Source: Candidatus Saccharimonadota bacterium
GTDB lineage: Bacteria; Pseudomonadota; Gammaproteobacteria; Enterobacterales; Enterobacteriaceae
Assembly: GCA_000217635.1 (NCBI GenBank)
Contig: CP001817.1
Span: forward strand, 270,001-302,000
DNA: 32,000 nucleotides
Direction of reading: 5' to 3'
Of the stretch, positions 3,395 to 31,030 are shown piece after piece. Position numbers and translations under genes: made by a program. A model generated the notes under the pieces. The model saw nothing but the letters and a program-made list of their open reading frames with translations, had not been told where the DNA came from and searched no databases. Every line of letters begins with the position of its first letter. The stretch's first letter is position 1.

Positions 3395-4390
3395 ATGAAG
3401 AATTATCCATGGTTATTTTCTCAATATAAAAGTATATTAAAAAAATACATAAAAAATAAACTACATCCAATTATCTTAATAAATTCTCGTAAAGGTTTAG
3501 GAATATTTCAATTAATTAAAAATATTAGTCAATGGTTTTTATGTTTAAATAAAAAAAACTTTGTATACTGTAATATGTGTACATCATGTACATTAATTAA
3601 GAAAAAAAATCATCCTGACTTATATGATAAAAATCATTATAAAATAAAAAATAAAACGATAGGAATTGATTATATTCGTTATATTATAAAAAATATTTAT
3701 AAAACCTCACAACAAGGAGGAGTAAAAATTGTAGTAATTAAAAATCTTCAAAATATTACAAAAGAAGCAAACAATGCTTTATTAAAAACTTTAGAGGAAC
3801 CCCCAAAAGATACTTTTTTTTTGTCCACTAATAATTTAAAAAAAATTAATAATACTACTATAAGTAGATCGACTATTTATTATATTAATATTTATAATAA
3901 AACTAATATCATTTTATCATGGCTACAAAAAAATAAAAAAATTTTTATGAATGATTTAAAAACTGCCCTTTTTATTAATAATTTTTCCCCAATAAGAGCT
4001 AATAATTTTTTAAATAGCTCTCAGATAATTCAAAGAAAAAATTTAATGAATATTATATATACATTTATCATGTATAATAATAATATTGATTTGTTATTTT
4101 CATTATTGTACTATAACAATACACATCTTTTTATTACTTGGATATGCTATCTTCTTTTAGATGTAATAAAATTTAGTATTTTTAAAGAAAAAGATATTTT
4201 ATATAATCTTGATCAGTATCATTTGATTAAAAAATTATCTAAAAAAAGTAGCGTACAATACTCATATAAAATTTTAATTTCTTGGATTAAATGTCAATAT
4301 ATATTGAAAACTATCCCATACATTGATAAAAAATTAATTTTAATTGAACAAACTTTATTTTGGAATAATTTATTGAAAAGCAAAAAATAA
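3395..4390 (+). CDS. holB: DNA polymerase III delta-prime subunit
   Basis: 331 aa. It begins MKNYPWL (E. coli MRWYPWL), then has a Cys cluster C..C..C, HPD, NALLKTLEEPP (identical in E. coli) and an SRS/SRC motif. It is colinear throughout. Confidence 0.86.
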   Translation: MKNYPWLFSQYKSILKKYIKNKLHPIILINSRKGLGIFQLIKNISQWFLCLNKKNFVYCNMCTSCTLIKKKNHPDLYDKNHYKIKNKTIGIDYIRYIIKNIYKTSQQGGVKIVVIKNLQNITKEANNALLKTLEEPPKDTFFLSTNNLKKINNTTISRSTIYYINIYNKTNIILSWLQKNKKIFMNDLKTALFINNFSPIRANNFLNSSQIIQRKNLMNIIYTFIMYNNNIDLLFSLLYYNNTHLFITWICYLLLDVIKFSIFKEKDILYNLDQYHLIKKLSKKSSVQYSYKILISWIKCQYILKTIPYIDKKLILIEQTLFWNNLLKSKK

Positions 4391-4407: not shown

Positions 4408-5175
4408 ATGTTCTTAATTGATACTCATTGTCATATCCATACATTAAATTATAAAAAATTACATAAAAATATAAAATCTGTATTAAATAACGCATTTAAT
4501 AAAAATGTAAAAATGTTTTTAGCAGTATCCACATCTGTTCAAGATTTTAAGAATCTTAAATATTTTACTAAAGGACAAAAAAATATTTTTTTATCCTGTG
4601 GATTACACCCTATTTATAAACATAAAAAATCAGATATTCTAGATCTAGAAAATCTATCACGTCAACATATAGTTATTGCTATCGGTGAAACAGGATTAGA
4701 TTTTTATCGATCTTTGCAAAAAAAAAGAGAACAAATAAAATTATTTGAAAAACACATTTATATATCAAAAAAATTAAAGAAACCAATTATTATACATAGC
4801 CGTTGTGCGAAAAAAGAAACTATATCAGCTTTATATTCATGCCATATTAAAGAAACTTCTGGTATCTTACATTCATTTAATGAAGATATTGATATGGCAA
4901 GAAAAATCCTAGATTTAGGATTCTATATATCTTTTTCTGGTATTATAACTTTTAAAAATGCAGATTATTTACGAAAAGTACTTAATTTTATTCCTATTAA
5001 CCGTCTTTTAATAGAAACTGATTCTCCATATTTATCCCCAGAGCCTGTACGTAATCAAGAAAACCAACCCTCTTATCTATTTTATATTGCAAAATATATT
5101 TCTAATTATATAAAAATGGATTTTTTAATTTTATTTCTATTTTACAAAAAAATTTTTTTACATTATTTAAATTAA
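4408..5175 (+). CDS. ycfH: TatD-family metal-dependent hydrolase YcfH, with the 3' end apparently frameshifted
   Basis: MFLIDTHCHI... (E. coli MFLVDSHCHL), GETGLDFY, IIHSR, LHSF, ETDSPYL. The last 7 codons of the 0 frame lack homology. The conserved NF..LF ending appears in the adjacent frame, which runs to TAA at 5226-5228 (see findings). Confidence 0.85.
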   Translation: MFLIDTHCHIHTLNYKKLHKNIKSVLNNAFNKNVKMFLAVSTSVQDFKNLKYFTKGQKNIFLSCGLHPIYKHKKSDILDLENLSRQHIVIAIGETGLDFYRSLQKKREQIKLFEKHIYISKKLKKPIIIHSRCAKKETISALYSCHIKETSGILHSFNEDIDMARKILDLGFYISFSGIITFKNADYLRKVLNFIPINRLLIETDSPYLSPEPVRNQENQPSYLFYIAKYISNYIKMDFLILFLFYKKIFLHYLN

Positions 5176-5230
5176 ATAATGATTCTAAAAAAGATTATTT
5201 TAAAAAAAATTATGGAAATTCCTTTTAAAT

Positions 5231-5587: not shown

Positions 5588-6060
5588 CAACCCCATATAT
5601 TATTAAAAAATGTAATACTATTAGAAAAAAATAAACTTTATTAAACAAAAAATAATTTTTTAAAAAAAATTTTAAAAAAATTAATTTTAATTTATATATA
5701 GAAAATTTATTTTAATTTTTATTAATATGTTACAAATAATGTTTGTATCTATTTTATCTTTAAAAAAGATATTATTAATAAAATATTAAATATATAAAAA
5801 AATTCTATTTTTTTTAAAAATATAAAAAACAATAAAGATATATATTCTAATTTATAGAAATTATATTTTTTATAAAAATATAAAATATTATTACAATTAA
5901 TATTTTATTAAAAATTTTTTTATACCACTATAAAATACAGTCAATTATGCTATATTTTTATAATATTAAGTAAAGAGACATACCATTTTAAAAAAAATTT
6001 AATTATGTAATGAATTAAAATAATTAAAAATATATATTTTTTGATATTAATATGTTATAA

Positions 6061-6096
6061 ACCGTAATATTTTTAAAATATTGCGGTATTTTTTTT
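6061..6096. terminator. terminator-like hairpin abutting the asnS stop
   Basis: ACCGTAATATTTT and AAAATATTGCGGT (6061-6087) form a stem of about 12 bp with one G-U pair, followed on the plus strand by T8 (6089-6096) and preceded by an A-poor context. On the minus strand, downstream of asnS, the hairpin lacks a good U-tract. Confidence 0.4.
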
Positions 6097-7465
6097 AAAA
6101 ATCAGCGTGTTTTACTGTTCTTGGAAAAGGAATTGCCTCGCGAATATTTTTAAGTCCAGTAATATACATAATTAATCGTTCAAACCCTAAACCAAAACCT
6201 GCATGAGGAACTGTACCATATTTTCTTAAATCTTGATACCATATATAATCTTTTTCATTTAATCCTAATTCATGTATACGTTGAGTTAATACACATAATC
6301 GCTCTTCTCGTTCTGAACCGCCGATAATTTCACCAACATTAGGTAATAATACATCAATAGCAGAGACCGTTTGATTATCCGAATTTATACGCATATAAAA
6401 AGCTTTTAAAGATTTTGGATAATTTTGTATAATAATAGGTGCTTTAAAATATTTTTCAACTAAATATCTTTCTTGTTGAATAGATAAATCATTTCCCCAT
6501 GATATATTTTCTTTTATTTCATATGATTTTTTTAATAAAACATTTATAACATCTGTATAATTAATACGTACAAACGGGATAGAAAGAAAAGAATTTAAAC
6601 GACAAAATATATTTGAATCAATATTTTTTTGTAAAAATACTAAATCTGCACCACACTTATTTAATACTTTATCTACAGTATATTTTAATAATGTCTCAGA
6701 TAATTTAGAAATATTATCAAGATTAGAAAAAGCCGTTTCAACTTCTAACATCCAAAATTCGGATAAATGTCTTTTAGTATTTGAATTTTCTGCGCGAAAA
6801 GTAGGTCCAAAAGAATAAACATTCGACAAAGAACATGCGTATGCTTCTAAAGTTAATTGTCCAGATACAGTTAAAAAAACATTTTTATTAAAAAATTTTT
6901 TTTCTTTAATATTATTTGAATCTAACATAGATACTTTAAACATCGATCCTGCGCCTTCAGTATTTATACTAGTAATAATAGGCGTAGAAATCCAAAAATA
7001 ATTTTTTTTATATAAAAAATTATGTAATGAATGATATATAACATTTCTAATTCTTGTAATGGATCCAAATAAATTTGTTCTAGAACGTAAATGACAAAAA
7101 TTTCTGATATATTCTACTGTATGTTTTTTTGCAGACATAGGATACAATGCAGGATTTTCGATCCATCCTAATATAGTAATATTTTTAGCAAGAATTTCAT
7201 ATTTCTGCAGTTTTCCATGTGAATATTGTAATTTACCCTCTATTTGAACAGAACATCCGATAGTTAATTTTAAAATTTCAGTATTGTAATTATTTAATGA
7301 ATTTTTTACAACTACCTGGATAATGTTAATAGTAGACCCATCATAAATACTTAAAAATGATAATCCTTTTTTTGAATCTCTCCGACTACGTACCCATCCT
7401 TTAATAGTAATATTTTTCAATATATATATTTTTGAAAAAATTTCATATATAGATATTACAAACAT
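6095..7465 (-). CDS. asnS: asparaginyl-tRNA synthetase
   Basis: 456 aa and colinear with E. coli AsnRS. Class II motifs include FRAENSNT.RHL.EFWMLE and GGSEREER, and it ends GFGLGFERL...IPFPRT. The SD AAAGGAGAAAAATT lies immediately upstream of the ATG. Confidence 0.96.
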   Translation of the reverse strand: MFVISIYEIFSKIYILKNITIKGWVRSRRDSKKGLSFLSIYDGSTINIIQVVVKNSLNNYNTEILKLTIGCSVQIEGKLQYSHGKLQKYEILAKNITILGWIENPALYPMSAKKHTVEYIRNFCHLRSRTNLFGSITRIRNVIYHSLHNFLYKKNYFWISTPIITSINTEGAGSMFKVSMLDSNNIKEKKFFNKNVFLTVSGQLTLEAYACSLSNVYSFGPTFRAENSNTKRHLSEFWMLEVETAFSNLDNISKLSETLLKYTVDKVLNKCGADLVFLQKNIDSNIFCRLNSFLSIPFVRINYTDVINVLLKKSYEIKENISWGNDLSIQQERYLVEKYFKAPIIIQNYPKSLKAFYMRINSDNQTVSAIDVLLPNVGEIIGGSEREERLCVLTQRIHELGLNEKDYIWYQDLRKYGTVPHAGFGLGFERLIMYITGLKNIREAIPFPRTVKHADF

Positions 7466-7836: not shown

Positions 7837-9722
7837 ATGATATTAAAATTAAAAAAAGGATTCTTTAAATTATATAATCAATATCTTTTACAAGATATAA
7901 ATCTTGTAATTAATAAAAATGAAAAAATTTGTTTACTGGGAAATAATGGGGCTGGAAAATCCACATTATTAAATATAATTTATAAAAAAATACCATTGGA
8001 TAGTGGGGTTATTGAAAAAAAGAAGGAAATTAAGATAAATTATTTAAAACAAAAATTACCCATTAGAACATGTGAAACAATATATCAAAATATATATAAG
8101 AGCATAGAAAAAAAATCAAATTTTTTATTAGAGTATGAAAATTTAATTAATAAAAAAAAAATTATAGAAAAAAATTTATATAATAATCAAATATATTTTT
8201 TACAATCTCAAATAAGAAAAAATAATTTATGGGATAAATATATAATTGTTAATAAATTACTTAAAGAATTATCATTAAATAAATATTCAATATTGTCTTC
8301 TTTATCCGGGGGTAATTTACAAAAAGTTTCTATCATTAAAATTTTATCACGCTCATCAAACCTTTTGCTTTTAGATGAACCTACTAACCATCTAGATTGT
8401 GAAAGTATTATATGGCTAGAATCTTATATAAAAAAATTTTCCGGAAGTGTACTATTTGTTTCTCACGATCGTTTATTTATTAATAATATTGCAACTAATA
8501 TTGTTGAATTAAATAATAATACTTTAATTAATTGGAAAACAAATAAATATGAAAATTTTATAAAAAAAAATATATAGTGATGAAAATTGAAAAAATTCAA
8601 AATAAAAAATTTAAAAAATGCATTTAAAAAAATAGAAAATAAAAACAAACAGGGCGTTAAAGCACGCACAAAAAGAAATAAAAACCAATAGAACAACATA
8701 AAGATATGAAAAATATTATATCCCTAATTAATAAAAAAAAATATACAATACTCATCAATATCCAAAAATAATAAATATTTCAAATTCTTCCCATAAAACT
8801 ATGATTAAGATAAATAATATTAATCTAATATATAATAATATACATATAATAAAAAATTTTTCTGATAAAATATTATATGGCGAAAAAATAGCTCTTGTAG
8901 GCTCTAATGGATGCGGAAAAAGCAGTATATTAAAAATATTATTAAAAAAGCTGCTTCCAAATAATGGCAGTGTTACATATAGTAATCAAATCAAAATACA
9001 AGAATTAGATCAAGAATATGATCTTCTTGAAAAAAATAATTCAGTTTTAGAAAATCTTTCTTATGGCAAGGATAGTATTGAAATTAATAAAAAAACGTAT
9101 ACTATAATCGGGCTTTTAAAAAAGTTTCTTTTTTCTGAAGACCAAATTTATTCCCCTGCAAAATCTTTATCTGGAGGTGAAATTAGTCGATTATTGTTAT
9201 TAAAATTGTTTTTTAAACCAAGTAATGTATTAATTCTTGATGAACCAACAAATCATTTAGATTTTAAAATGTTAAATTTTTTAGAAAAATTTTTAATGAA
9301 CTACACTGGAACAGTAATTTTTGCAAGTCATGATCGATATTTTGTTAATAAAATATCAAAAAAATTATGGTTTTTTAATAAAAAAGGATCAATTTCTGTA
9401 AATATTGGTGATATTGAAAACATTTATCAAAAAATATATAAAGAAAAAAAATTTAGTTTAAAAACCATAATAAAAAAAAACCTAAAATTAGAATAAATCC
9501 TATAAATAAAAAATTAAATAAAGAACTAAAAGATATCCCTAAAAATATTGAAAAAATAGAAAAAAAAATTGAGAATATATATCAAGAAATAAATAATCAT
9601 AATTTTTATAGAAATAAAGCACAATATATTAAAGATGTATATAAAAAATTATATAAAGAAAAAATAAATTTAAAAATAAATTTTTATATTGGGAGAAACT
9701 AGAAAATATAAAAAATAATTAA
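7837..9722 (+). pseudogene. uup: ABC-F ATPase Uup, disrupted by multiple 1-nt frameshifts
   Basis: ORF 7837-8577 is ABC domain 1 (GNNGAGKST, LSGGNLQK, LLLLDEPTNHLD, SHDR). ORF 8801-9496 is ABC domain 2 (GSNGCGKSS, LSGGEISR, VLILDEPTNHLD, SHDR). The linker (QGVKARTKRN) and the C-terminal coiled coil (...LYWEKLENIKNN*) are present but in other frames. Six frame changes are needed to follow homology to the stop at 9720-9722. Confidence 0.85.
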
Positions 9723-9807
9723 TATTGATTAATTTATTTTAATAGAGAAATATAATACGAAAATCATATTATTCAATAAATATATAAATTTTTTTCAATA
9801 ATAGCTA

Positions 9808-10740
9808 TTAAATATTTAAACATTTTGTAGAACAATAAAAATTAAATTTTTTAGAACAATTTTTGCATTGAATAAACAATCTATGACACCGATGATATGC
9901 GCAATTAATATGAATACTATCAGTTAATTGATTACAATTTCTACATTTAGACAAAATATCATTTGTAACTCGTTCTGCTAATCGATTATCAAATACAAAT
10001 ATTTTTCCTTTAAAATACATCGGTAAAGAATATTTTTGAGTTTGGTTAATATATCCTAAAATTCCACCATATATTTGATAAACGTTTTTAAATTTATATT
10101 TTTTTAATAATCCAAAAGCTTTTTCGCAACGTATTCCTCCGGTACAATATAAAACTATTTTTTTATTTTTATAAGGTAATAAGGTTTCTTTAAGCATATC
10201 TAACTGTTCTCGAAATGTTTTAGAAGGTATTTCTAATGCCTGATAAAAATGTCCGATTTCATATTCATAATGATTTCGTATATCTACAAAAATAGATTTC
10301 GAATCTAAAAATAACTTATTCACTTGAAATGCATTCAAATAATATTTTGAAGAATTTTTTAAAATAGGTACATTATCAATATTGTTGGCAACAAGTTGTT
10401 TTCGAATTTTAATTTGTAATTTCCAAAATGCCATACTTTTGTTTTCAATAGAAAAATTAATATTAATATTACATAAGTTTATATTAATTTTTTTAAAAAA
10501 ACTCATAATTTTATTTACATAAGAATCAGGTACACTAATTTGTGCATTTATTCCTTCATTTGCAATATAAATTCGCCCCAATACATCGTATTTTTTTAAC
10601 CCTATTTGAATATCATTTAATAATTCTTTAGGATAAAATACATTAAAATATTTATATAACGATATAATTGTACGTTTTGTATAATTATGTAAACAAATAA
10701 TTTTCAATATTTTATTAGAAATAATATTTTTCTTTTTCAA
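9808..10740 (-). CDS. trhO: rhodanese-domain tRNA uridine(34) hydroxylase (YceA/TrhO family)
   Basis: 310 aa. It has EGINAQISVP, DIRNHYEYEIGHF, the active-site loop CTGGIRCEKA, and a C-terminal Cys-rich region. It is colinear with E. coli YceA. Confidence 0.88.
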   Translation of the reverse strand: MKKKNIISNKILKIICLHNYTKRTIISLYKYFNVFYPKELLNDIQIGLKKYDVLGRIYIANEGINAQISVPDSYVNKIMSFFKKININLCNININFSIENKSMAFWKLQIKIRKQLVANNIDNVPILKNSSKYYLNAFQVNKLFLDSKSIFVDIRNHYEYEIGHFYQALEIPSKTFREQLDMLKETLLPYKNKKIVLYCTGGIRCEKAFGLLKKYKFKNVYQIYGGILGYINQTQKYSLPMYFKGKIFVFDNRLAERVTNDILSKCRNCNQLTDSIHINCAYHRCHRLFIQCKNCSKKFNFYCSTKCLNI

Positions 10741-10810: not shown

Positions 10811-13672
10811 TTAAATTTCACTATCTTTTATATAATAAAAATTTTTTTGTTGAATCAACTTATCAAATATTATATTATTTTTTTTTAAACTTTCGATTTT
10901 TTCTAAAACAATAGTTTTCGGGGCATATTTAATAAAACTTTCATTCTTTAAGGTCTTATTTATTTTATTAATAAATTTTTGAATATGAACAATTGATTTA
11001 TTTAATCGTAATAATTCTGTTTTTATATTTATTGAATGAGAAAGGGGAATAAATAATTCGGTATCATCAACTATTCTATATATTGAAGAAGACGTTTGAG
11101 TATATCTAAAAAGTATAACGATATTTTTTACATAAAAAGTTTTTTTTAAAAAATTATAATTTTCTTCTATAAAAATTCTTTTATACATTGAGAAACACTT
11201 AATATATAGTTGCAAACTAAAATTATACCGTACGCCGATATCAATACGTATACTACGTAATTCCAAAGATACTTTTTGAATCCATTTAATAAATTTAAAT
11301 AAATATAAAGGATGTTGATTTTCTTTATATATAGGAAAAGATTCTAAAAGAACTGACTTTATAGGACGATTGTATAATTTATTAAAATTTTCCCATAACA
11401 TATCTGTAATAAATGGTGCAATAGGATGTAATAAACGTATAATTGAACTAAAAACAACAAATAATGTATATTTAACGGACTCCACTTCTTGGTTCGAACC
11501 TGTATTTAAAATTGGTTTAATTGTCTCTAAATAATAATCACAAAAATCACGCCATATAAACTTATACAATAAAGATACAATCTTATCAAAACGATATTTT
11601 TTAAAAAAAATATGATAATTTTTAATAATTATATTTAATTTTAATATTATCCATAGATCTAGAAAAGATTTTTTTAATTTTTTTTGTTTTAAATCTCTTG
11701 TCATATTTAAAAATATAAATCGACTCGCATTCCATAGTTTATTACAAAAATATTTATATCCTTTTAATCTATTCATATCCCAATGTATATTGCGACTAGT
11801 GGATACTAATGATAACAAAGTTAATCGCAATGCATCAGCACCATGAGACTCAATACCATTAGGAAATTGTTTTTTAGTATAAGATATAATTTTTGATAAT
11901 AATTTTGGTTGCATTAAGTTATGAGTTCTTTTTTCTATTAATTTTGATAACTTAATTCCATCTATTAAATCTAACGGATCTAGAGTATTTCCTCTAGATT
12001 TAGACATTTTTTTCCCTTCTTCGTCTTTAATTAATCCTGTAATATATAATTTTTTAAATGGTACTTGTATAATATTATTTATTTTTTTCATTACATACGT
12101 TGTGATCATAATCATTCGAGCAATCCAAAAAAATATTATATCAAATCCTGATACTAATATATTAGTAGGATGAAAATTTTTAATTTTTTTTTTATCAGAT
12201 GGCCAACCTAAACCTGCAAAAGTCCATAAACTAGAAGAAAACCAGGTATCTAAAACATCCGTATCTTGTGTTAAAACAATACTATCTGGAATTAAATATT
12301 CTTTTCTAATTGATTTTTCATTTTTTCCAACATAAACATTATTATTTATATTATCATACCAAATAGGAATTTGATGTCCCCACCATATTTGACGTGAAAT
12401 ACACCAATCTTCAACATTATTCATCCAAGCTAAATACATATTTAGATATTGTTGCGATAAAAATAAAACTTTTCTTTTTTTTACCATTTCAATAGCAGTA
12501 TTAGCTAATTTTTTGGTTTTTAAATACCATTGATTGGTTAACATAGGCTCTAAAATTATTCCACTACGATCACCATAAGGAATAGAACTGTTATATATTT
12601 CAATTTTTTTTAAATATTGCATTTCTTTTAGCATAGATAAAATTTTTTTTCGAGCTATAAATCTATCTAATTTTTTTAATATATCTGGGATTTGAATATT
12701 ATCTTTATATGTTATACTTCCATTCTGATTAAAAATTTCTAATCGATCTAATATTTTTCCGTCAAATGTAAAAATGTTAATCATTGGTAATTTATGAATT
12801 TTTGCTATATTATAATCATTAAAATCATGTGCAGGAGTAATTTTCATACATCCTGTACCTTTATTCATATCAATAGTATAATCACTTATAATAGGAATAA
12901 CACGTCCTATAATAGGAACCAAAACAAAACGACCAATATATTTTTTATATCGAATATCCCTAGGATGAACAGCAATAGCGGTATCACCGAGTAAAGTCTC
13001 AGGACGTGTAGTAGATACAATTAAATATTTTATTTTTTCAATTTTATGTTTTTTTTGTACTAATAAATATTTTATATACCACATATTATGTGATACTGTT
13101 CGATGTTCTACCTCTAAATCAGATACAACTGTTTTAAGGCTCGGATCCCAATAAACTAGTTTTTTACTTTTATAAATATAATTATCTTTATATAACAAAA
13201 TAAAAACTTTTTTTACAGCTTTAGAAAAATTTTTATCTAAAGTAAATCTACTATCATTAACATTAATAAAATTACCTAACCGTTTAACTTGATAAAAAAT
13301 ATTAGATTCAAATTTTTTTTTCCAATTCAAAATTTCTTTTATAAACTCTTTTCTAGAATACGAATCTCTTTTTCTTCCTTTTTTAGTTAATAAATAATTT
13401 TCAACAACCATTTGTGTTGCAATACCTGCATGATCAGTACCTAGTTGAAATAAAACATTTTTTCCTAACATATAATTATATCGTATTAACGAATCCATAA
13501 TCGCCTGTTGAAATGCATGTCCCATATGCAAGGAACCTGTAATGTTAGGCGGCGGCATCATAATACAAAAAAACTTTTTATTAGAATTAATATCTTTTTT
13601 AAAAATATTGTTTTTATCCCAACATTTTTGTATATATCTTTCTATTTTATAAGGATTATATGTTTTTTCCAT
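10811..13672 (-). CDS. valS: valyl-tRNA synthetase
   Basis: MEKTYNP... is identical to the E. coli ValRS start. It has the HIGH-type motif PPPNITGSLHMGHAF, KMSKS (KMSKSRGN), and WCISRQ.WWGH. The ORF track extends 4 codons further (MKII, ATG at 13684), and either ATG is possible. Confidence 0.96.
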   Translation of the reverse strand: MEKTYNPYKIERYIQKCWDKNNIFKKDINSNKKFFCIMMPPPNITGSLHMGHAFQQAIMDSLIRYNYMLGKNVLFQLGTDHAGIATQMVVENYLLTKKGRKRDSYSRKEFIKEILNWKKKFESNIFYQVKRLGNFINVNDSRFTLDKNFSKAVKKVFILLYKDNYIYKSKKLVYWDPSLKTVVSDLEVEHRTVSHNMWYIKYLLVQKKHKIEKIKYLIVSTTRPETLLGDTAIAVHPRDIRYKKYIGRFVLVPIIGRVIPIISDYTIDMNKGTGCMKITPAHDFNDYNIAKIHKLPMINIFTFDGKILDRLEIFNQNGSITYKDNIQIPDILKKLDRFIARKKILSMLKEMQYLKKIEIYNSSIPYGDRSGIILEPMLTNQWYLKTKKLANTAIEMVKKRKVLFLSQQYLNMYLAWMNNVEDWCISRQIWWGHQIPIWYDNINNNVYVGKNEKSIRKEYLIPDSIVLTQDTDVLDTWFSSSLWTFAGLGWPSDKKKIKNFHPTNILVSGFDIIFFWIARMIMITTYVMKKINNIIQVPFKKLYITGLIKDEEGKKMSKSRGNTLDPLDLIDGIKLSKLIEKRTHNLMQPKLLSKIISYTKKQFPNGIESHGADALRLTLLSLVSTSRNIHWDMNRLKGYKYFCNKLWNASRFIFLNMTRDLKQKKLKKSFLDLWIILKLNIIIKNYHIFFKKYRFDKIVSLLYKFIWRDFCDYYLETIKPILNTGSNQEVESVKYTLFVVFSSIIRLLHPIAPFITDMLWENFNKLYNRPIKSVLLESFPIYKENQHPLYLFKFIKWIQKVSLELRSIRIDIGVRYNFSLQLYIKCFSMYKRIFIEENYNFLKKTFYVKNIVILFRYTQTSSSIYRIVDDTELFIPLSHSINIKTELLRLNKSIVHIQKFINKINKTLKNESFIKYAPKTIVLEKIESLKKNNIIFDKLIQQKNFYYIKDSEI

Positions 13673-13774
13673 AATTATTTTCATTATATAGTTATTGTAA
13701 AAAATTTATATTAATTGTAACTATAAAAAATAAATAAAATATATTAATTAATATATAATTATTTAATAAATTAT

Positions 13775-15280
13775 TTATATAAATATTTTAGATTGATTTA
13801 AAAGATATTCGCATAATAATTTATTTGGTCGTCCTGTTGACCCTTTATTTTTATATATTGACGATGCAGTTCCTGCAATATCCAAATGAGCCCAAGGATA
13901 ATCTTTTACAAATTTAGATAAAAAACATGCAGCTACACTAGCTCCCGCTAAACCCTTATCAGAATTATTTAAATCAGCTACTATAGATTTTAAATCATTC
14001 TCATAATCTGAATGTAAAGGTAATTGCCATACTAAATCATTACTAACATTTCCAGACTGTATTAAATCATTAGCTAATTTCTTATTGTTACTCATTAATC
14101 CAGTATAAGTAGCTCCTAATGCTACCATACAAGCCCCTGTTAATGTAGCTATGTCAATAACTAATAAAGGGTTAAACCTAGAAATATATGTTAATACGTC
14201 ACATAAAATTAATCTACCTTCAGCATCTGTATTTAAAACCTCTACTTTTTTTCCAGACATAGTAGTAATAATATCACCGGGACGATAAGAATTTTTTCCG
14301 ATCATATTATCACATCCAGCAAGAATTCCAATAACATTAATAGGTAACCTTAACTCAGATAAAGTAGTTATAATACCGAACACTGAAGCTGCTCCCGACA
14401 TATCATATTTCATTTCATCTAAATTTTTTGATGGTTTAATTGATAATCCCCCTGAATCAAATGTTACACCTTTACCAATTAAGACAATAGGACGTTTCTG
14501 ATTATTAATATTTCCATTATATTTTATAATAGACATAAACGGTAAATTTAAAGAACCGTATGAAACAGATAAGTACGCATTCATCTGTAATTGTTTCATT
14601 TCTTGCTGATTAATAATTATTGTATTTAATAAATCTGGGTATTCTAATTGTAAATTTTTCGATTTTTCAGATAAATATTCAGCATTACATAAATTTGGAG
14701 GCATATTACATAAATTTTTAGTTCTAATTATACCTTTTACAATGGCATTAGAATGTTTTAAAGCTAATTCTGCATTCTTTAAATGTTTTAGATTTTCTAT
14801 ATTTAGAATAATATTTTTTATTACCCTCATTATCCAAAATATATTTAAATTTTTAAATTCATCATTTTGTATAATTTCTTTAGATGTTTCAATAAAAAAT
14901 TTAATCTTTCGATATGCATTTAAATTTAAAACACAACAATTTATTAACAAACATAATATATTTTTTACATGCATTTCTATTAATTTTTTTATACATACAA
15001 TAATTATTTTTTCATAATCAGATTGATTAATTATATTTGTCTCACCACATCCTACCAATAAAATTCGTTTATCTACCATAGTGGGGATCTTATACAATAA
15101 TAAAATTTGCCCGATTTTTCCTTGAAAATCACCGTATTTAATAATTTTTAATATATATTTTTTACTTTTTCGTTTATTACATTCGTCGAATTTAAAAAAA
15201 ACATCCGATTCACCAATTCCAATAACTATGCAATCAATTAACGTATCAAAGTTATTATTATAACAAATAGAAAATTTCAT
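13775..15280 (-). CDS. pepA: leucyl aminopeptidase (cytosol aminopeptidase A)
   Basis: MKFSI... (E. coli MEFSV), VGKGVTFDSGG.SIKP, the NTDAEGRL signature, and ATLTGAC. The ATG at 15280 lies 7 nt after AAGG (15288-15291). The ATG at 15286 used by the ORF track is only 1 nt from it. Confidence 0.93.
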   Translation of the reverse strand: MKFSICYNNNFDTLIDCIVIGIGESDVFFKFDECNKRKSKKYILKIIKYGDFQGKIGQILLLYKIPTMVDKRILLVGCGETNIINQSDYEKIIIVCIKKLIEMHVKNILCLLINCCVLNLNAYRKIKFFIETSKEIIQNDEFKNLNIFWIMRVIKNIILNIENLKHLKNAELALKHSNAIVKGIIRTKNLCNMPPNLCNAEYLSEKSKNLQLEYPDLLNTIIINQQEMKQLQMNAYLSVSYGSLNLPFMSIIKYNGNINNQKRPIVLIGKGVTFDSGGLSIKPSKNLDEMKYDMSGAASVFGIITTLSELRLPINVIGILAGCDNMIGKNSYRPGDIITTMSGKKVEVLNTDAEGRLILCDVLTYISRFNPLLVIDIATLTGACMVALGATYTGLMSNNKKLANDLIQSGNVSNDLVWQLPLHSDYENDLKSIVADLNNSDKGLAGASVAACFLSKFVKDYPWAHLDIAGTASSIYKNKGSTGRPNKLLCEYLLNQSKIFI

Positions 15281-21842: not shown

Positions 21843-22772
21843 TTAAATATTTTTTAATATACACTCTGGTATTAAGATTCCTAAATTATTTACCTTTCCA
21901 ATACCTAAAAAAACATTATTTTTATTAGTTATAACAAAAATTGAATTTTTTATAAAATTGTGTGATAAAAAAACATATAATTTTTTTTGAAAACGAATTG
22001 ACTCTAAATGTGATAATCGAATTATAGGATATTCAGAAAAAAAAGAACGAATCGGTAATATAAATGATGAATAATCAAAAAAAGAATAATTTTTTAAAAA
22101 ATTGTTATTTTTTTTTTTAATAAAATATCTGAAAAACTTATTAATTGTGATGTAACATACGGACCCATTCCTAATCTTTTTAAAAATACAATGTGCGCAC
22201 CACATTGTAATATTTTTTCCAATATCCTGTATTAAACTACGAATATAAGTACCTTTAGAACATTTAATCTTTAATTCTAAAAAATTATGACAATATTGAA
22301 TAATATTAATATAATAAATTGTTAAAATACGTAATTTACGAGGAATATTTATTCCACATCTTGCATATTTATACAATGGTTTCCCTTTATATTTAATAGC
22401 AGAAAACATAGGCGGAACTTGTTGTATAATACCATGAAAAGTTTTTAATGTTTGTATAATATTATTAATTTTTACATTAACTTTATATTTTTTTATAACT
22501 TTCCCTGCAACATCACCCGTTGTTGTCACTTGCCCTAATTTTGCTATGACATGATAATATTTAATAGAATTTGTTAAATATTTAGAAAATTTTGTAGCAT
22601 TTCCAAAACATATCGGTAACATTCCAGTAGCTAAGGGATCTAAACACCCAGAAAAACCTGCTTTTTTTACAAAAAATATTTCTTTTATCTGTTGTAAAAT
22701 AATATTTGAAGACAAACCTTTAGGTTTATTTAATAAAAGTATGCCATGAATATCATTATATTTTTTTAACAA
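21843..22772 (-). CDS. truB: tRNA pseudouridine-55 synthase TruB, open ORF with an internal out-of-frame segment
   Basis: TTG start. It has GILLLNKPKG.SS, the catalytic-Asp motif GCLDPLATGMLPIC, and CSKGTYIRSL. The C-terminal part aligns (ILPI...SEYPIIRL). Between 22218 and 22108 the conserved core is encoded in the +1 frame (see findings). Confidence 0.88.
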   Translation of the reverse strand: MLKKYNDIHGILLLNKPKGLSSNIILQQIKEIFFVKKAGFSGCLDPLATGMLPICFGNATKFSKYLTNSIKYYHVIAKLGQVTTTGDVAGKVIKKYKVNVKINNIIQTLKTFHGIIQQVPPMFSAIKYKGKPLYKYARCGINIPRKLRILTIYYINIIQYCHNFLELKIKCSKGTYIRSLIQDIGKNITMWCAHCIFKKIRNGSVCYITINKFFRYFIKKKNNNFLKNYSFFDYSSFILPIRSFFSEYPIIRLSHLESIRFQKKLYVFLSHNFIKNSIFVITNKNNVFLGIGKVNNLGILIPECILKNI

Positions 22773-23234: not shown

Positions 23235-25367
23235 CTAAATAACACTAGTTTGAAAAACTTCAATAACATCCCCGGTCTGAATATTATTATAATTTTTTAT
23301 ACCAATTCCACATTCTATTCCGCTACGAACCTCATTAATATCTTCTTTAAACCGACGTAATGATTCTAACTCCCCTTCATATATAACAATATTATCTCTT
23401 AATATACGAACAGGATTTGTTCGTTTAACAATACCTTCAATAACCATACATCCTGCAATTAATCCAAATTTTGGAGATTTGAAAACATTACGAACTTCAG
23501 CTAGACCAATAATATTTTGTTTATATACAGGTTTTAATAATCCCGAGATAGATTTTTTAATATCATTAATAACATCATAAATAACAGAATAATAACGTAC
23601 ATCTAATCTTTCTGTTTCTATAATACGTTTTGCTAAAGAATCTGCTCGTACATTAAAACCGATTATTATCGCTAAAGAAGCTAAACATAGTGTGGCATCA
23701 GACTCCGTTATTGCTCCTACACCGGAGGAAATAATATTAATTAAAACAAATTTATTTGATAATTTCTCTAATGAATCTTTAATAGCTTCTAAAGAACCTT
23801 GCATGTCTGTTTTTAAAATAATATTTAATATTGAAATTTTTTTTGCATCATCAATTCCATGAAATAAATTTTCTATATTAGTTTTTTTATTAAAAGATAA
23901 TTTTTTATCACGAAATTTACTTTGACGATATAATGCTACTTCTCGTGCTTTTTTTTCATCTCGAACTACAGTAAACAAATCTCCGGTACTTGGTATTCCT
24001 GATAAACCTAAAATTTCTACAGGAATTGAAGGTCCAGCAGTAAAAACATGGTAACAAAATTCATTTCTAATAGCTTTAATTTTTCCATACTCTAAACCAC
24101 AAATAACAATATCACCTATTTTCAATGTACCTTCGTTAACCAATACAGTAGCAATAGGACCACAACCTTTATCTAAAAAAGATTCAATTACAATTCCGGA
24201 AGCCATGCAATCATATTCTGCTTTTAATTCTAACATTTCAGCCTGTAATAGAATTGCTGCTAGTAATTCATCTATTCCAAAACCAGTTTTTGCAGATATA
24301 GATACAAAAATATTTTCTCCCCCATAATCTTCTGAAATTATTGCATATTTCATTAATTCTTTTTTTATTTTTTCTATATTTATACCAACTTTATCTACTT
24401 TATTTATAGCTACAATAATAGGAACTTGAGCTGACTGCGCATGTCGTATAGCCTCAATTGTTTGAGGCATGATACCATCGTCAGCTGCTACAATTAACAC
24501 TACTATATCTGTTACTGATGCACCTCTAGCTCTCATTGCAGTAAATGCTGCATGACCCGGGGTATCTAAAAAAGTAATAATTCCGTTCGGTGTCGAAACA
24601 TGATATGCTCCAATGTGCTGAGTGATTCCACCTGCTTCTTTTGATACTATTTTTGTAGATCGAATATAATCTAAAAGAGATGTTTTACCGTGATCTACAT
24701 GACCCATAATTGTTACTACTGGAGCACGTATTTTTTTATTGCCTATGTTAATATCACGATCTTTCATTAATGAAATTTCTAACGCATTATCGACATGCAT
24801 TATTACCTTATGACCCATTGCTTCAGAAATAATTTTTGCTGTATGTTTATCTATAATTTGATTTTTTGCAATAACTATACCCATTTTTTGCATATTTTTA
24901 AAAATTATAGAACTTTTTACCGCCATTTTATTTGCTAATTCAGTTATTGATATAGTTTCGCCAACTAAAATATTTCGCATAAATGTTTTTATAGGTTTTA
25001 TAAAACTTTGTTGTAATATAGAACGTCGAGTTTTTTTATGTTTATAATGTCTTCCAAAGCGAGATATACTATTATCTTTCTGTGTCATAAATTTTTTTTC
25101 TGACAATTTATTATTTTTTCGTAATTTGTTATTTTTTATTATTGAACTGGGGTAACGTATTTTCGATACACCGTCATTTTTTAAAGAACTGTTCATAAAA
25201 GTAGGCGCGGACAATGGTTGAACAACATTCTTTTTTTTTGTTTTTAATGTTTTATTACTAGATAAATGCTTCTTATTTGGAGTATTAATATTTAATAATG
25301 TATTATGAGTACGATTAATATTTTTTTTACTATCATTAAAATAATGTGAATTTTTTATTTTTGACAT
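23235..25367 (-). CDS. infB: translation initiation factor IF-2, short N-terminus
   Basis: 710 aa. From [17 protein letters not shown] onward it is highly similar to E. coli IF2, including the G domain [33 protein letters not shown] and NKVDK. It is about 180 aa shorter than E. coli IF2 at the N-terminus, and a TGA lies 7 codons upstream of the ATG. Confidence 0.95.
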
Positions 25368-25771
25368 ATTAACAGATATAATTTTTTTTCATTATTATTA
25401 GTTAATTCTTTTTGTTTTTTAGAAAAATTTTTTTTACTTTTTTAAATAAATTTTGTTTACTTTTTAATTTCACTATTAATCTCATCTCTTTTTATTTTTC
25501 TTAAAAAAAACATTTTAAGTTAAATTATTTTATTAAAATTTACTTTTTTGTTATTATATAACATATTTTTTTTAATAAAAATATTATATAATAATTAAAG
25601 ATAATTACAAAATAACTATTTTTTTAAAAAATTTTTATTATATATAAAGATATTTTTTTTACATTTTAAAATATAAATTATAAAAATTAAATAATATATA
25701 AAACATTAATTAATTTAAAATACTATAATTTTCATATTTATATATTATTAATATATAATTAAAAAACAGTT

Positions 25772-27561: not shown

Positions 27562-27649
27562 TACCGAAGGTGGGACTTGAACCCACAAACCTATATTTTT
27601 AGGTACTACCCCCTCAAGATAGCGTGTCTACCTATTTCACCACTTCGGT
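27562..27649 (-). tRNA. leuU: tRNA-Leu (anticodon GAG), class II with a long variable arm, no encoded CCA
   Basis: The minus strand reads ACCGAAG-TG-GTGAAATAGGTAGACAC-G-CTATC-TTGAGGG-GGTAG-TACCTAAAAATATAGGTTT-GTGGGTTCAAGTCCCAC-CTTCGGT-A. It has a 7-bp acceptor stem, anticodon loop TTGAGGG and a GTTCAAGTC T-loop. It is colinear with E. coli leuU and sits in the same place after secG. Confidence 0.94.
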
Positions 27650-27759
27650 TTTTATTAACATTTAATTATTACACTATAGATAAAAAATAATATCTGTAAT
27701 TTTGACATAATTATATATTAATTATATAATTTATATATTAAAAATAATGCGAATGAAAA

Positions 27760-27972
27760 TTACATAATATTAAATTTATCAAAAAAAAACAGCATTACTA
27801 AAATCATAGTTATCCAAATAACAGTTGAATTGCGCATTTTTTTAATAAATAACTTAGTTGGAGCGTTATTATTAATAGACGAAAAATCGTTTCCTTCTGT
27901 GGGTTGGAAAATAATAATTATAAGTAAAAAAAATGAAATTAAAAAAAATAAAACTAATAAAAAATAATACAT
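27760..27972 (-). CDS. secG: preprotein translocase subunit SecG
   Basis: 70 aa from the ATG at 27972: MYYFLLVLFFLISFFLLIIIIFQPTEGND... (E. coli MYEALLVVFLIVAIGLVGLIMLQQGKGAD). It has two hydrophobic segments and the secG-leuU synteny. The ORF track starts 3 codons upstream at a GTG (27981). Confidence 0.8.
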   Translation of the reverse strand: MYYFLLVLFFLISFFLLIIIIFQPTEGNDFSSINNNAPTKLFIKKMRNSTVIWITMILVMLFFFDKFNIM

Positions 27973-30162: not shown

Positions 30163-30791
30163 TTAAATTCTACGCCTATAAGCTATAATAAATATTTCAC
30201 GAGAATTAATTCGTGATGAATTTGGTTTAAAAATTTTTATTTTAAAAAAATATCATTAATTTTCTTTATGTATTGATTAAACCCATCTCCTTGAAAAAGT
30301 TTAATAATAAAATATCCATTTTTTGAAAGTAAAATATTTGCTATCGAAATAGCAATATCACTTAAATAAAAAGATCTAGCATTATCAACAACTGAACATC
30401 CACTGATATTTGGAGACATATCAGATACAATTGCATTCCAATAATATCGTTTTGAAATAGAAATAATCTTTTTAAAAATAGATTTATTAGAAACATCACC
30501 CTGTAAAAATATTACCCTTTTTAAGGGTTTTATTGGTATAAGATCGCATGCAAGAATATGACCTGATTGTCCGATTTTTTCTTGTAAATATTCACACCAT
30601 CCTCCAGGAGCAGCACCTAAATCAATTATATTCATACCTTTTTGAAAAATATTATATTTTTTATCTATTTCTTTTATTTTAAACCAAGAACGAGATCTTA
30701 ATTTTTTAATATTTCTTTTTTTAATATATAAATCATGAAAATTTCTATGTAACCAGTTTCCTGAACTCTTACTTTTAGTATGACGTTTCAT
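30163..30791 (-). CDS. rlmE: 23S rRNA Um2552 2'-O-methyltransferase RlmE (FtsJ), frameshifted near the 3' end
   Basis: The 0-frame ORF 30237-30791 (184 aa) has the SAM motif DLGAAPGGW plus SDMSPN and IIKLFQG. The last 25 or so conserved residues (KIKIFKPNSSRINSREIFIIAYRRRI*) are in the -1 frame, down to TAA at 30163-30165. The switch is at sense T7 (plus A7 at 30244-30250). The total is 209 codons if one nt is added. Confidence 0.88.
30243..30250 (-). other. homopolymer / U UUU UUA slippery heptamer at the rlmE frame junction
   Basis: The sense strand reads GAT ATT TTT TTA AAA TAA. The heptamer T TTT TTA in X XXY YYZ phase lies one codon before the 0-frame stop. Confidence 0.6.
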
Positions 30792-31030
30792 ATTTATTTA
30801 TATGTAAAGAGTTAAAAAAAATATAAATTTAAAATATTTTTAAATTTTAAAAATATTTAAAAAATATATAATTTATTTTAAAAATATTTTAAAATAAAAT
30901 AAGAAATTAAAAAAAATATAAAATTTTTTAAAAAAAAATATATGTTATTTAAACATTCTAATATAATAATAATCGCGATAATTTCATTAATTAGTATTTA
31001 TTAATATTTTTATAAAAAATATATTTTTTA

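Follow-up and report, generated by a model that had tools for sequence, protein, structure and literature searches.

Two opposite homopolymer frameshifts hidden in the deposited truB gene of Buchnera aphidicola (Cinara tujafilina), probably an artefact of the assembly

The 32 kb window analysed here (the whole stretch of DNA, not the gene under study) is part of the chromosome of the aphid symbiont Buchnera aphidicola (Cinara tujafilina), CP001817, referred to below as BCt. It contains truB within the gene order nusA-infB-rbfA-truB-rpsO-pnp, which is conserved and is the same in related Buchnera. The 309-aa product of truB is 100% identical to a database protein named tRNA pseudouridine 55 synthetase. 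Scans of the window for tRNAs and Rfam families returned only a tRNA-Leu (27562-27649) and nothing bearing on the shift in truB. The gene and the features inside it are as follows:

21843..22772, minus strand: truB open reading frame as deposited, 309 codons with a TTG start, 309 aa
22213..22218, minus strand: A6 run in the sense strand (T6 in the plus strand), the +1 or extra-base switch; expected true length A5
22119..22212, minus strand: about 32 codons that are out of frame in the deposit; the +1 frame encodes ILQCGAHIVFLKRLGMGPYVTSQLISFSDILL
22108..22118, minus strand: A11 run in the sense strand (T11 in the plus strand), most likely the -1 or missing-base switch; expected true length A12
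22096..22101, minus strand: T6 run in the sense strand, alternative site of the -1 switch, where T7 also restores the frame
22094..22222, minus strand: nested +1-frame ORF of 42 codons that holds the conserved TruB peptide and ends with the TAA at 22094-22096

The initial annotation had proposed that this intact-looking gene is read out of frame between an A6 and an A11 tract, and both tracts lie exactly where it placed them. The deposited frame contains the peptide DIGKNITMWCAHCIFKKIRNGSVCYITINKFFRYFIKKK, and the nested ORF translates as MEKILQCGAHIVFLKRLGMGPYVTSQLISFSDILLKKKITIF, which includes ILQCGAHIVFLKRLGMGPYVTSQLISFSDILLKKK between the tracts. As had also been claimed, the +1 frame is closed on either side, by a TAA at 22232-22234 and another at 22094-22096, and these two stops confine the switches to a few bases around the A6 run and to a second interval, 22097-22119. 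The first switch is bounded by the TAA at 22232-22234 on one side and by ATA TTA, where the +1 homology begins, on the other. The bounds of the second take in either the A11 run or the T6 run at 22096-22101, and the two sites are not separable because the homology is weak and the linker variable. The proposed -1 shift at A11 therefore stands as a shift at or near that run, with the T6 run equally allowed as its site.

A purpose-written frameshift-aware protein-to-DNA alignment, guided for truB by the TruB of the Cinara confinis symbiont, follows the predicted path and changes frame at 22217 (+1) and at 22122 (-1). These are non-triplet indels of opposite sign whose sum is one of the two values, 0 or 3, that keep a frame. 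The distance between them is 95-105 nt, rising to as much as about 120 nt should the second sit in the T6 run. The protein still has 309 aa when the A6 run is shortened, and the A11 run lengthened, by one base. In the deposited DNA the frame shifts by +1 at the first tract and by -1 at the second or close to it, and the ORF stays open while about 32 codons of the conserved core are misread. In the deposited protein the scrambled residues are 186-218, and the segment corresponds to about residues 189-221 of E. coli TruB, at the beginning of the TruB_C_2 region. The expectation that an annotator would overlook such a shift was borne out, in that the deposited product is exactly the misread 309-aa protein.

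Two outcomes had been named in advance as speaking against a hidden shift, namely a 0-frame segment that scores as well against a TruB profile as the +1 segment, and relatives that keep the 0-frame peptide. Both comparisons came out in favour of the +1 frame. The Pfam family TruB_C_2 (PF16198) matches the corrected A5+A12 protein with 38.3 bits (E 1.5e-9, cutoff 29.3) and does not match the deposited frame at all, and among the best 120 database matches the deposited TruB is the only one that lacks PF16198. TIGR00431 rises from 221 bits for the deposited to 238.9 bits for the corrected protein, both above the cutoff of 151.45, and its match reaches profile position 208 of 210 instead of 188. 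Against E. coli TruB (1R3F), phmmer gives 230.6 bits for the deposited and 257.5 bits for the corrected sequence, with residues 5-304 of the corrected protein aligning end to end to residues 8-307 of E. coli TruB. The E. coli peptides that the initial annotation had cited agree with 1R3F, and the span of 79 residues from CSKG to YP that it gave for both proteins is also correct (C171..P249 here, C174..P252 in E. coli). The +1 peptide is kept by the relatives and the 0-frame peptide by none. At the segment the C. confinis TruB (74% overall identity) reads ILKCGAHVIFLKRIQIGPYIESQLINFSDI and another close relative reads ILQCGAHVVCLKRLRIGPYFTSQLINFSDI, and all the other Cinara Buchnera examined have an intact truB. 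When the frame of the BCt row alone is corrected in an alignment of 30 TruBs, L188, C190, H193, L197 and R199 become invariant; the out-of-frame stretch includes the columns of the CGAH...L.R motif. The segment also includes Leu200 (E. coli TruB), which we take to be a conserved active-site residue of pseudouridine synthases.

Outside the segment, the TruB_N catalytic domain (PF01509) is recognised over residues 30-177 with 172 bits. The catalytic Asp D45 (E. coli D48) is invariant in the alignments, and LDPLATG is found within GCLDPLATG. The corrected protein thus resembles E. coli TruB (PDB 1K8W, 1R3F) in its score, in GCLDPLATG and in its operon context, and the deposited protein differs in having no TruB_C_2 match. 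In both versions the C-terminal PUA-type domain (PF09157) scores 13.4 bits, below the cutoff of 21; its precomputed match is also absent from several close Cinara relatives, and in the AlphaFold2 models the C-terminal domain is predicted to be beta-rich, with pLDDT about 75-92. With the same set of 29 homologues supplied for both versions, the mean pLDDT from AlphaFold2 is 79.5 as deposited and 87.0 as corrected, and the pTM goes from 0.75 to 0.82. In 10-residue blocks over residues 191-220 the pLDDT is 79/76/53 as deposited and 95/90/82 as corrected, and the block with the catalytic Asp goes from 60 to 77.

A comparison of tract lengths with relatives had been suggested as a further check. 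It holds for the first site, where the DNA of all three relatives is one base shorter at the A6 run; at the second site the base deficit relative to the same three falls inside the variable linker.

The same frameshift-aware approach, preceded by tblastn, was applied to the other genes of the window with reference genes from the C. confinis Buchnera (LT667503; loci L018 and L020), the closest complete relative. Over 27.2 kb of coding sequence it returned 15 frame switches in 7 genes, every one of them at an A or T run. Thirteen of these lie in six genes other than truB:

uup, six switches: 8573 (-1, A9), 8613 (+1, A6), 8687 (-1, A5), 8743 (-1, A9), 9471 (-1, A9) and 9677 (-1, A5)
infB, within the N-terminal 40 codons: 25421 (-1, A8) and 25380 (-1, A8)
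rlmE/ftsJ, 28 codons from the end: 30253 (-1, T7)
secG, 16 codons from the end: 27789 (+1, T9)
tatD, close to the end: 5129 (-1, T6)
pepA, a possible second compensated pair: 14853 (-1, A5) and 14807 (+1, A6), tentative

The pepA pair is counted as tentative; the sequence around it is poorly conserved, and the alignment scoring may have produced the pair. Owing to its two N-terminal switches, the infB ORF has 710 codons instead of 750. Close pairs (truB, pepA, uup 8573/8613 and infB) are in excess. The fraction of runs affected climbs with run length, from 1-3% at 5-7 nt through 5% at 8 and 27% at 9 to 1 of 2 runs at 11. Eighteen other genes, about 17 kb in all and including valS, pnp, ftsH, deaD, nusA and asnS, are free of switches, valS despite containing 10 runs of 8 or more.

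As a control, the C. confinis proteins were aligned by the same method to three other Cinara Buchnera assemblies (36 kb), which we take not to be 454-based. Apart from a split of holB and end effects, this returned a single internal switch, at an A11 run of hinT. The holB split occurs at a T9/T10 run in both relatives, and the gene is in frame in the BCt window. Genuine long-tract frameshifts (holB, hinT) do occur in the Cinara Buchnera clade. Events are roughly 5-8 times as dense in the BCt window (15 in 27 kb) as in these relatives (about 2 in 36 kb). For validated Buchnera genomes the published number of homopolymeric frameshifts is 1-18 in the entire genome, with 3 in BCc (PMC3164680). Extrapolated from the window to the genome, the number of genes affected would be in the region of a hundred.

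Once their frames are corrected, the affected genes bear no sign of decay. The 627 codons of corrected uup are free of stops, and the BCt branch of this gene is no longer than in lineages with an intact uup (three-taxon ratio 0.97). We considered uup as a decaying pseudogene and rejected this, as the frame-aware alignment is conserved throughout and contains no stops; the fall in tblastn identity along the gene is due to cross-matches between its two ABC repeats. For truB the branch ratio is 0.80 when corrected and 1.19 as deposited, so that the deposited gene inflates the apparent rate of BCt; among ten unaffected genes the ratio lies between 0.45 and 1.32. Third positions of the +1 frame account for 8 of the 13 BCt-specific substitutions in the truB segment (binomial P about 0.035), and 6 substitutions are synonymous in that frame. 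This codon pattern indicates that the +1 frame has been the selected frame for essentially all of the lineage's history. An ancient compensated frameshift was accordingly rejected, the substitutions following the +1-frame pattern and the corrected gene not being accelerated.

Taken together, fifteen homopolymer shifts without decay, in one genome and not in its relatives, have run-length error as their simplest single cause. We consider it probable that the double shift in truB is a homopolymer-length artefact of the deposited assembly. Most likely truB is intact and a normal gene for tRNA pseudouridine-55 synthase. The true sequence would then have A5 at 22213-22218 together with either A12 at 22108-22118 or T7 at 22096-22101. 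The initial annotation had kept two opposite homopolymer errors in the assembly as its fallback; this fits the context much better than the biological reading that it placed first. The observations agree with such an origin in three respects, since the events are confined to homopolymers, their density is far above that of validated genomes, and the affected genes have not decayed.

CP001817, published in 2011, is presumably a 454-only assembly; we regard this as probable because the same laboratory used 454 on C. tujafilina DNA. That laboratory sequenced C. tujafilina bacteriocyte DNA by 454 FLX and Titanium, and later polished a 454 assembly of Serratia from the same aphid with HiSeq reads (PMC4122931). 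A sister project of the same laboratory in 2011 also used 454, and other groups added Illumina data to Buchnera genomes specifically to remove 454 artefacts (PMC3164680). The window shares with 454 homopolymer errors in AT-rich endosymbionts the single-base events at A/T runs, their increase with run length and the full conservation of the corrected genes, in addition to the 454-era date of CP001817. It differs in that two affected runs measure just 5-6 nt, a short length for an error in the consensus; with 454 such an error would be more typical of an 11-mer than of a 6-mer. The events are also clustered by gene, with valS, pnp, ftsH, deaD, nusA and asnS spared, so that an extra assumption such as curation is needed. 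The switch-free 17 kb in particular needs either curation of broken ORFs or real selection. Real frameshifts at long tracts elsewhere in the clade (holB, hinT) likewise count against an artefact.

How a hidden pair could arise from such errors may be pictured as follows. An overcall at the short run would shift the frame, and the ORF would then stop just after the long A-run. The long, unreliable run may next have been set, by the assembler or a curator, to the length that keeps the ORF open. The repair would perhaps have been placed at the nearest long ambiguous run and not at the true error. Checks of ORFs would find only those errors that break an ORF, and compensated pairs and near-terminal shifts would survive in the record. 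The uneven distribution and the close pairs are in keeping with a record whose ORF-breaking errors had been spotted and mended. An independent sequence of the same strain was sought by protein database searches, which found nothing beyond the deposit closer than 74-78% identity, and by exact-pattern scans of metagenome contigs, which gave no match; a look-up of contigs by the exact protein turned up no record either.

It is unlikely, in our assessment, that both tract lengths are real, that is, that a frameshift and a compensating one 95-105 nt away both arose very recently. In favour, E. coli can do without truB, secG, rlmE and uup, and related Cinara Buchnera carry real long-tract frameshifts. 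In Blochmannia the frameshift indels that survive are compensated pairs and 3'-end indels (PMC3622351), the very pattern of the window, and this counts against an artefact and for a real pair. Compensatory frameshift pairs are also known more widely (PMC8935012, PMC8127213), and homopolymer indels are the chief route of gene inactivation in Buchnera (PMC3164680). The truB pair resembles the compensatory pairs of Blochmannia (PMC3622351), animals (PMC8935012) and RNA viruses (PMC8127213) in its opposite signs, its restored frame and its short stretch in another frame, as well as in lying at homopolymers in an endosymbiont. In contrast, the two indels of a Blochmannia pair (Williams and Wernegreen 2013, PMC3622351) are no more than 20 bp apart and alter a few residues of fast-evolving proteins, whereas the truB pair is 95-105 nt apart and alters about 32 residues of a conserved segment of the catalytic domain. 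Among the scrambled columns are some that are invariant in 30 TruBs, so that a compensating mutation would offer selection little benefit. The density of events, the unaccelerated rates and the substitutions in the codon pattern of the +1 frame argue against a real pair as well.

If both lengths were real, the full-length TruB with residues 186-218 scrambled would probably be catalytically dead or misfolded, and RNA polymerase or ribosome slippage at both runs might yield a little correct protein. Poly(A) frameshifts that slippage during transcription corrects in part have been described in Buchnera and Blochmannia (Tamas et al. 2008, as reported in PMC3164680 and PMC3622351). The truB case is similar, as far as those reports describe the earlier ones, in its AT-rich endosymbiont, its A11 run and its still conserved downstream frame. 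The cases so reported are single, ORF-breaking frameshifts at runs of about 9-10 or longer, whereas the truB ORF is open and has a second shift at A6, which is too short for efficient slippage. Both runs would have to slip, and only A11 is of the length (about 9-10 or more) at which rescue is expected. The rate of slippage rises exponentially with run length, and a transcriptome-wide study in Buchnera detected no transcription error that restored a reading frame (PMC5574713). With A6 a poor slippage site, double rescue would be very rare, and slippage at both sites is unlikely to matter. The suggestion of an inactive enzyme or one rescued by double slippage therefore found no support, given the 13 other homopolymer switches, the lack of any sign of relaxed selection and the shortness of the A6 run. 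Slightly less probable again is the joint proposition that both lengths are real and recent and that compensated or terminal homopolymer frameshifts are unusually dense in the BCt genome.

A mixed case, with a real shift at one site and a miscall or an edit by a curator at the other, would leave truB with a single real frameshift, and this too strikes us as improbable. With A5 and A11, the gene would have a long poly(A) frameshift that is partly correctable by transcriptional slippage; with A6 and A12, it would be a fresh pseudogene truncated just past the A-run. Pyrosequencing is unreliable on homopolymers and is not known to tell 11 reliably from 12, so the recorded length of the A-run is little informative either way. 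Frameshifts at an A11 run (hinT) and at T9-T10 runs (holB) in related assemblies favour the mixed case, as does the correction by slippage at long runs documented for Buchnera in the work reported through PMC3164680 and PMC3622351. Against it, an error of opposite sign must fall within about 100 nt of the real frameshift, unless through deliberate curation; moreover, the corrected BCt truB branch is not accelerated, and truB is intact in all other Cinara Buchnera examined. Finally, an old, maintained programmed +1/-1 recoding signal at both runs is extremely improbable and was rejected: the peptide between the tracts is indeed under purifying selection in the +1 frame, but the relatives are in frame at the first site (A3, A4 or A7), the second site lies in a variable linker, and the shift is in the BCt genome alone.

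If the pair is an artefact, as we think probable, truB illustrates that an open reading frame of the right length does not prove a correct sequence, and nr and UniRef list the scrambled TruB as though it were a normal protein. Within 32 kb, uup, infB, rlmE, secG, tatD and perhaps pepA have the same problem, which reaches tables of gene presence and absence. Frameshift-aware alignment to a close relative spots such cases fast and is applicable to other endosymbiont genomes of the pyrosequencing era. A real pair would amount to a compensated frameshift of unusual length across a conserved catalytic core, fixed or segregating, and would provide a natural test of how much damage to TruB is tolerated in a reduced genome. 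The value of the finding is modest as a data-quality warning on a reference endosymbiont genome and low as biology. The homopolymer frameshifts in holB and hinT are better candidates than truB for genes that truly depend on slippage. We also note that a 2024 dataset scores uup as absent for C. tujafilina, by our own count of its columns.

Frame switches outside truB were called by frameshift-aware protein-to-DNA alignment guided by the proteins of the C. confinis Buchnera; a shift of -1 denotes a base missing from the deposited sequence, and a shift of +1 an extra base. The genes concerned in the window are as follows.

4408-5180, plus strand: tatD, with a -1 shift at the T6 run 5121-5126
7837-9713, plus strand: uup, encoding an ABC-F ATPase, with six homopolymer frame switches (8573, 8613, 8687, 8743, 9471 and 9677)
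14807-14853, minus strand: part of pepA, where an A5 run (-1) and an A6 run (+1) may form a compensated pair
25367-25480, minus strand: N-terminal region of infB, with a -1 shift in each of two A8 runs (25421 and 25380)
27741-27972, minus strand: secG (77 codons), with a +1 shift at the T9 run 27781-27789
30166-30797, minus strand: rlmE/ftsJ, with a -1 shift at the T7 run 30244-30250

When its frame is corrected, uup is conserved over its full length, contains no stop codons and has a normal branch length. The 2024 gene-content table scores this gene, by column count, as absent in C. tujafilina and present in C. confinis.

In rlmE/ftsJ, secG and tatD, the shift lies close to the gene's 3' end. 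The shift in rlmE/ftsJ costs the gene its final 28 codons, while the conserved C-terminal peptide KPNSSRINSREIFIIA is carried on in another frame, and the RlmE profile match of the composite product reaches position 207 of 209. Similarly, the tatD shift falls about 20 codons ahead of the gene end, and conservation continues past it in the other frame, as the peptide FISILQKNFFTLFKL. The secG gene, which adjoins tRNA-Leu(GAG) at 27562-27649, is shifted 16 codons upstream of its end, and its corrected peptide scores 43.9 bits against the TIGR00810 secG model (cutoff 30.85). A 2011 paper listed secG as absent from the C. tujafilina Buchnera and the 2024 table scores it as absent for all Cinara Buchnera, despite which the copy in C. 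confinis is intact.

At the opposite end of its gene, the infB ORF begins at an internal ATG because the two -1 shifts cut off the first ~40 codons, leaving 710 aa as compared to 743-750 aa in relatives. The N-terminal peptide (MRLIVKLKSKQ...) matches relatives, but is spread over two other frames.

The two pepA switches are ~14 codons apart, in a stretch of the N-terminal domain where conservation is weak. They may represent a second compensated pair in the window, besides truB, or could instead be an artefact of alignment scoring.

Not every length difference reflects a frameshift. The asnS gene is shorter than in nearly all relatives (456 vs. 466 codons) through in-frame deletions within a variable loop (residues ~187-200), not through a frameshift.

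6095-7465 of the window, minus strand: asnS
3395-4390 of the window, 13274-14265 of the C. confinis locus and 9271-10264 of the SRR21069242 locus: holB, encoding DNA polymerase III delta'
6031-7074 of the SRR33594963 locus: nusA, called at 347 aa vs. 496 aa

The holB gene of C. tujafilina is in frame (T9, ~3813-3824), whereas in both related assemblies a poly-T run splits it into two overlapping ORFs, reading GC+T9 (-1) in C. confinis and T10 (+1) in the SRR21069242 species. These splits are candidates for real frameshifts, possibly slippage-dependent, in an important gene. In the SRR33594963 Buchnera, the nusA alignment stops at a stop codon followed by a frame switch, and the C-terminal domain may therefore be lost or frameshifted. 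In the SRR21069242 Buchnera, hinT (~8378 of the same locus as holB) switches frame close to the N-terminus, in an A11 run, and is called at 88 aa, compared to 117 aa in C. confinis.
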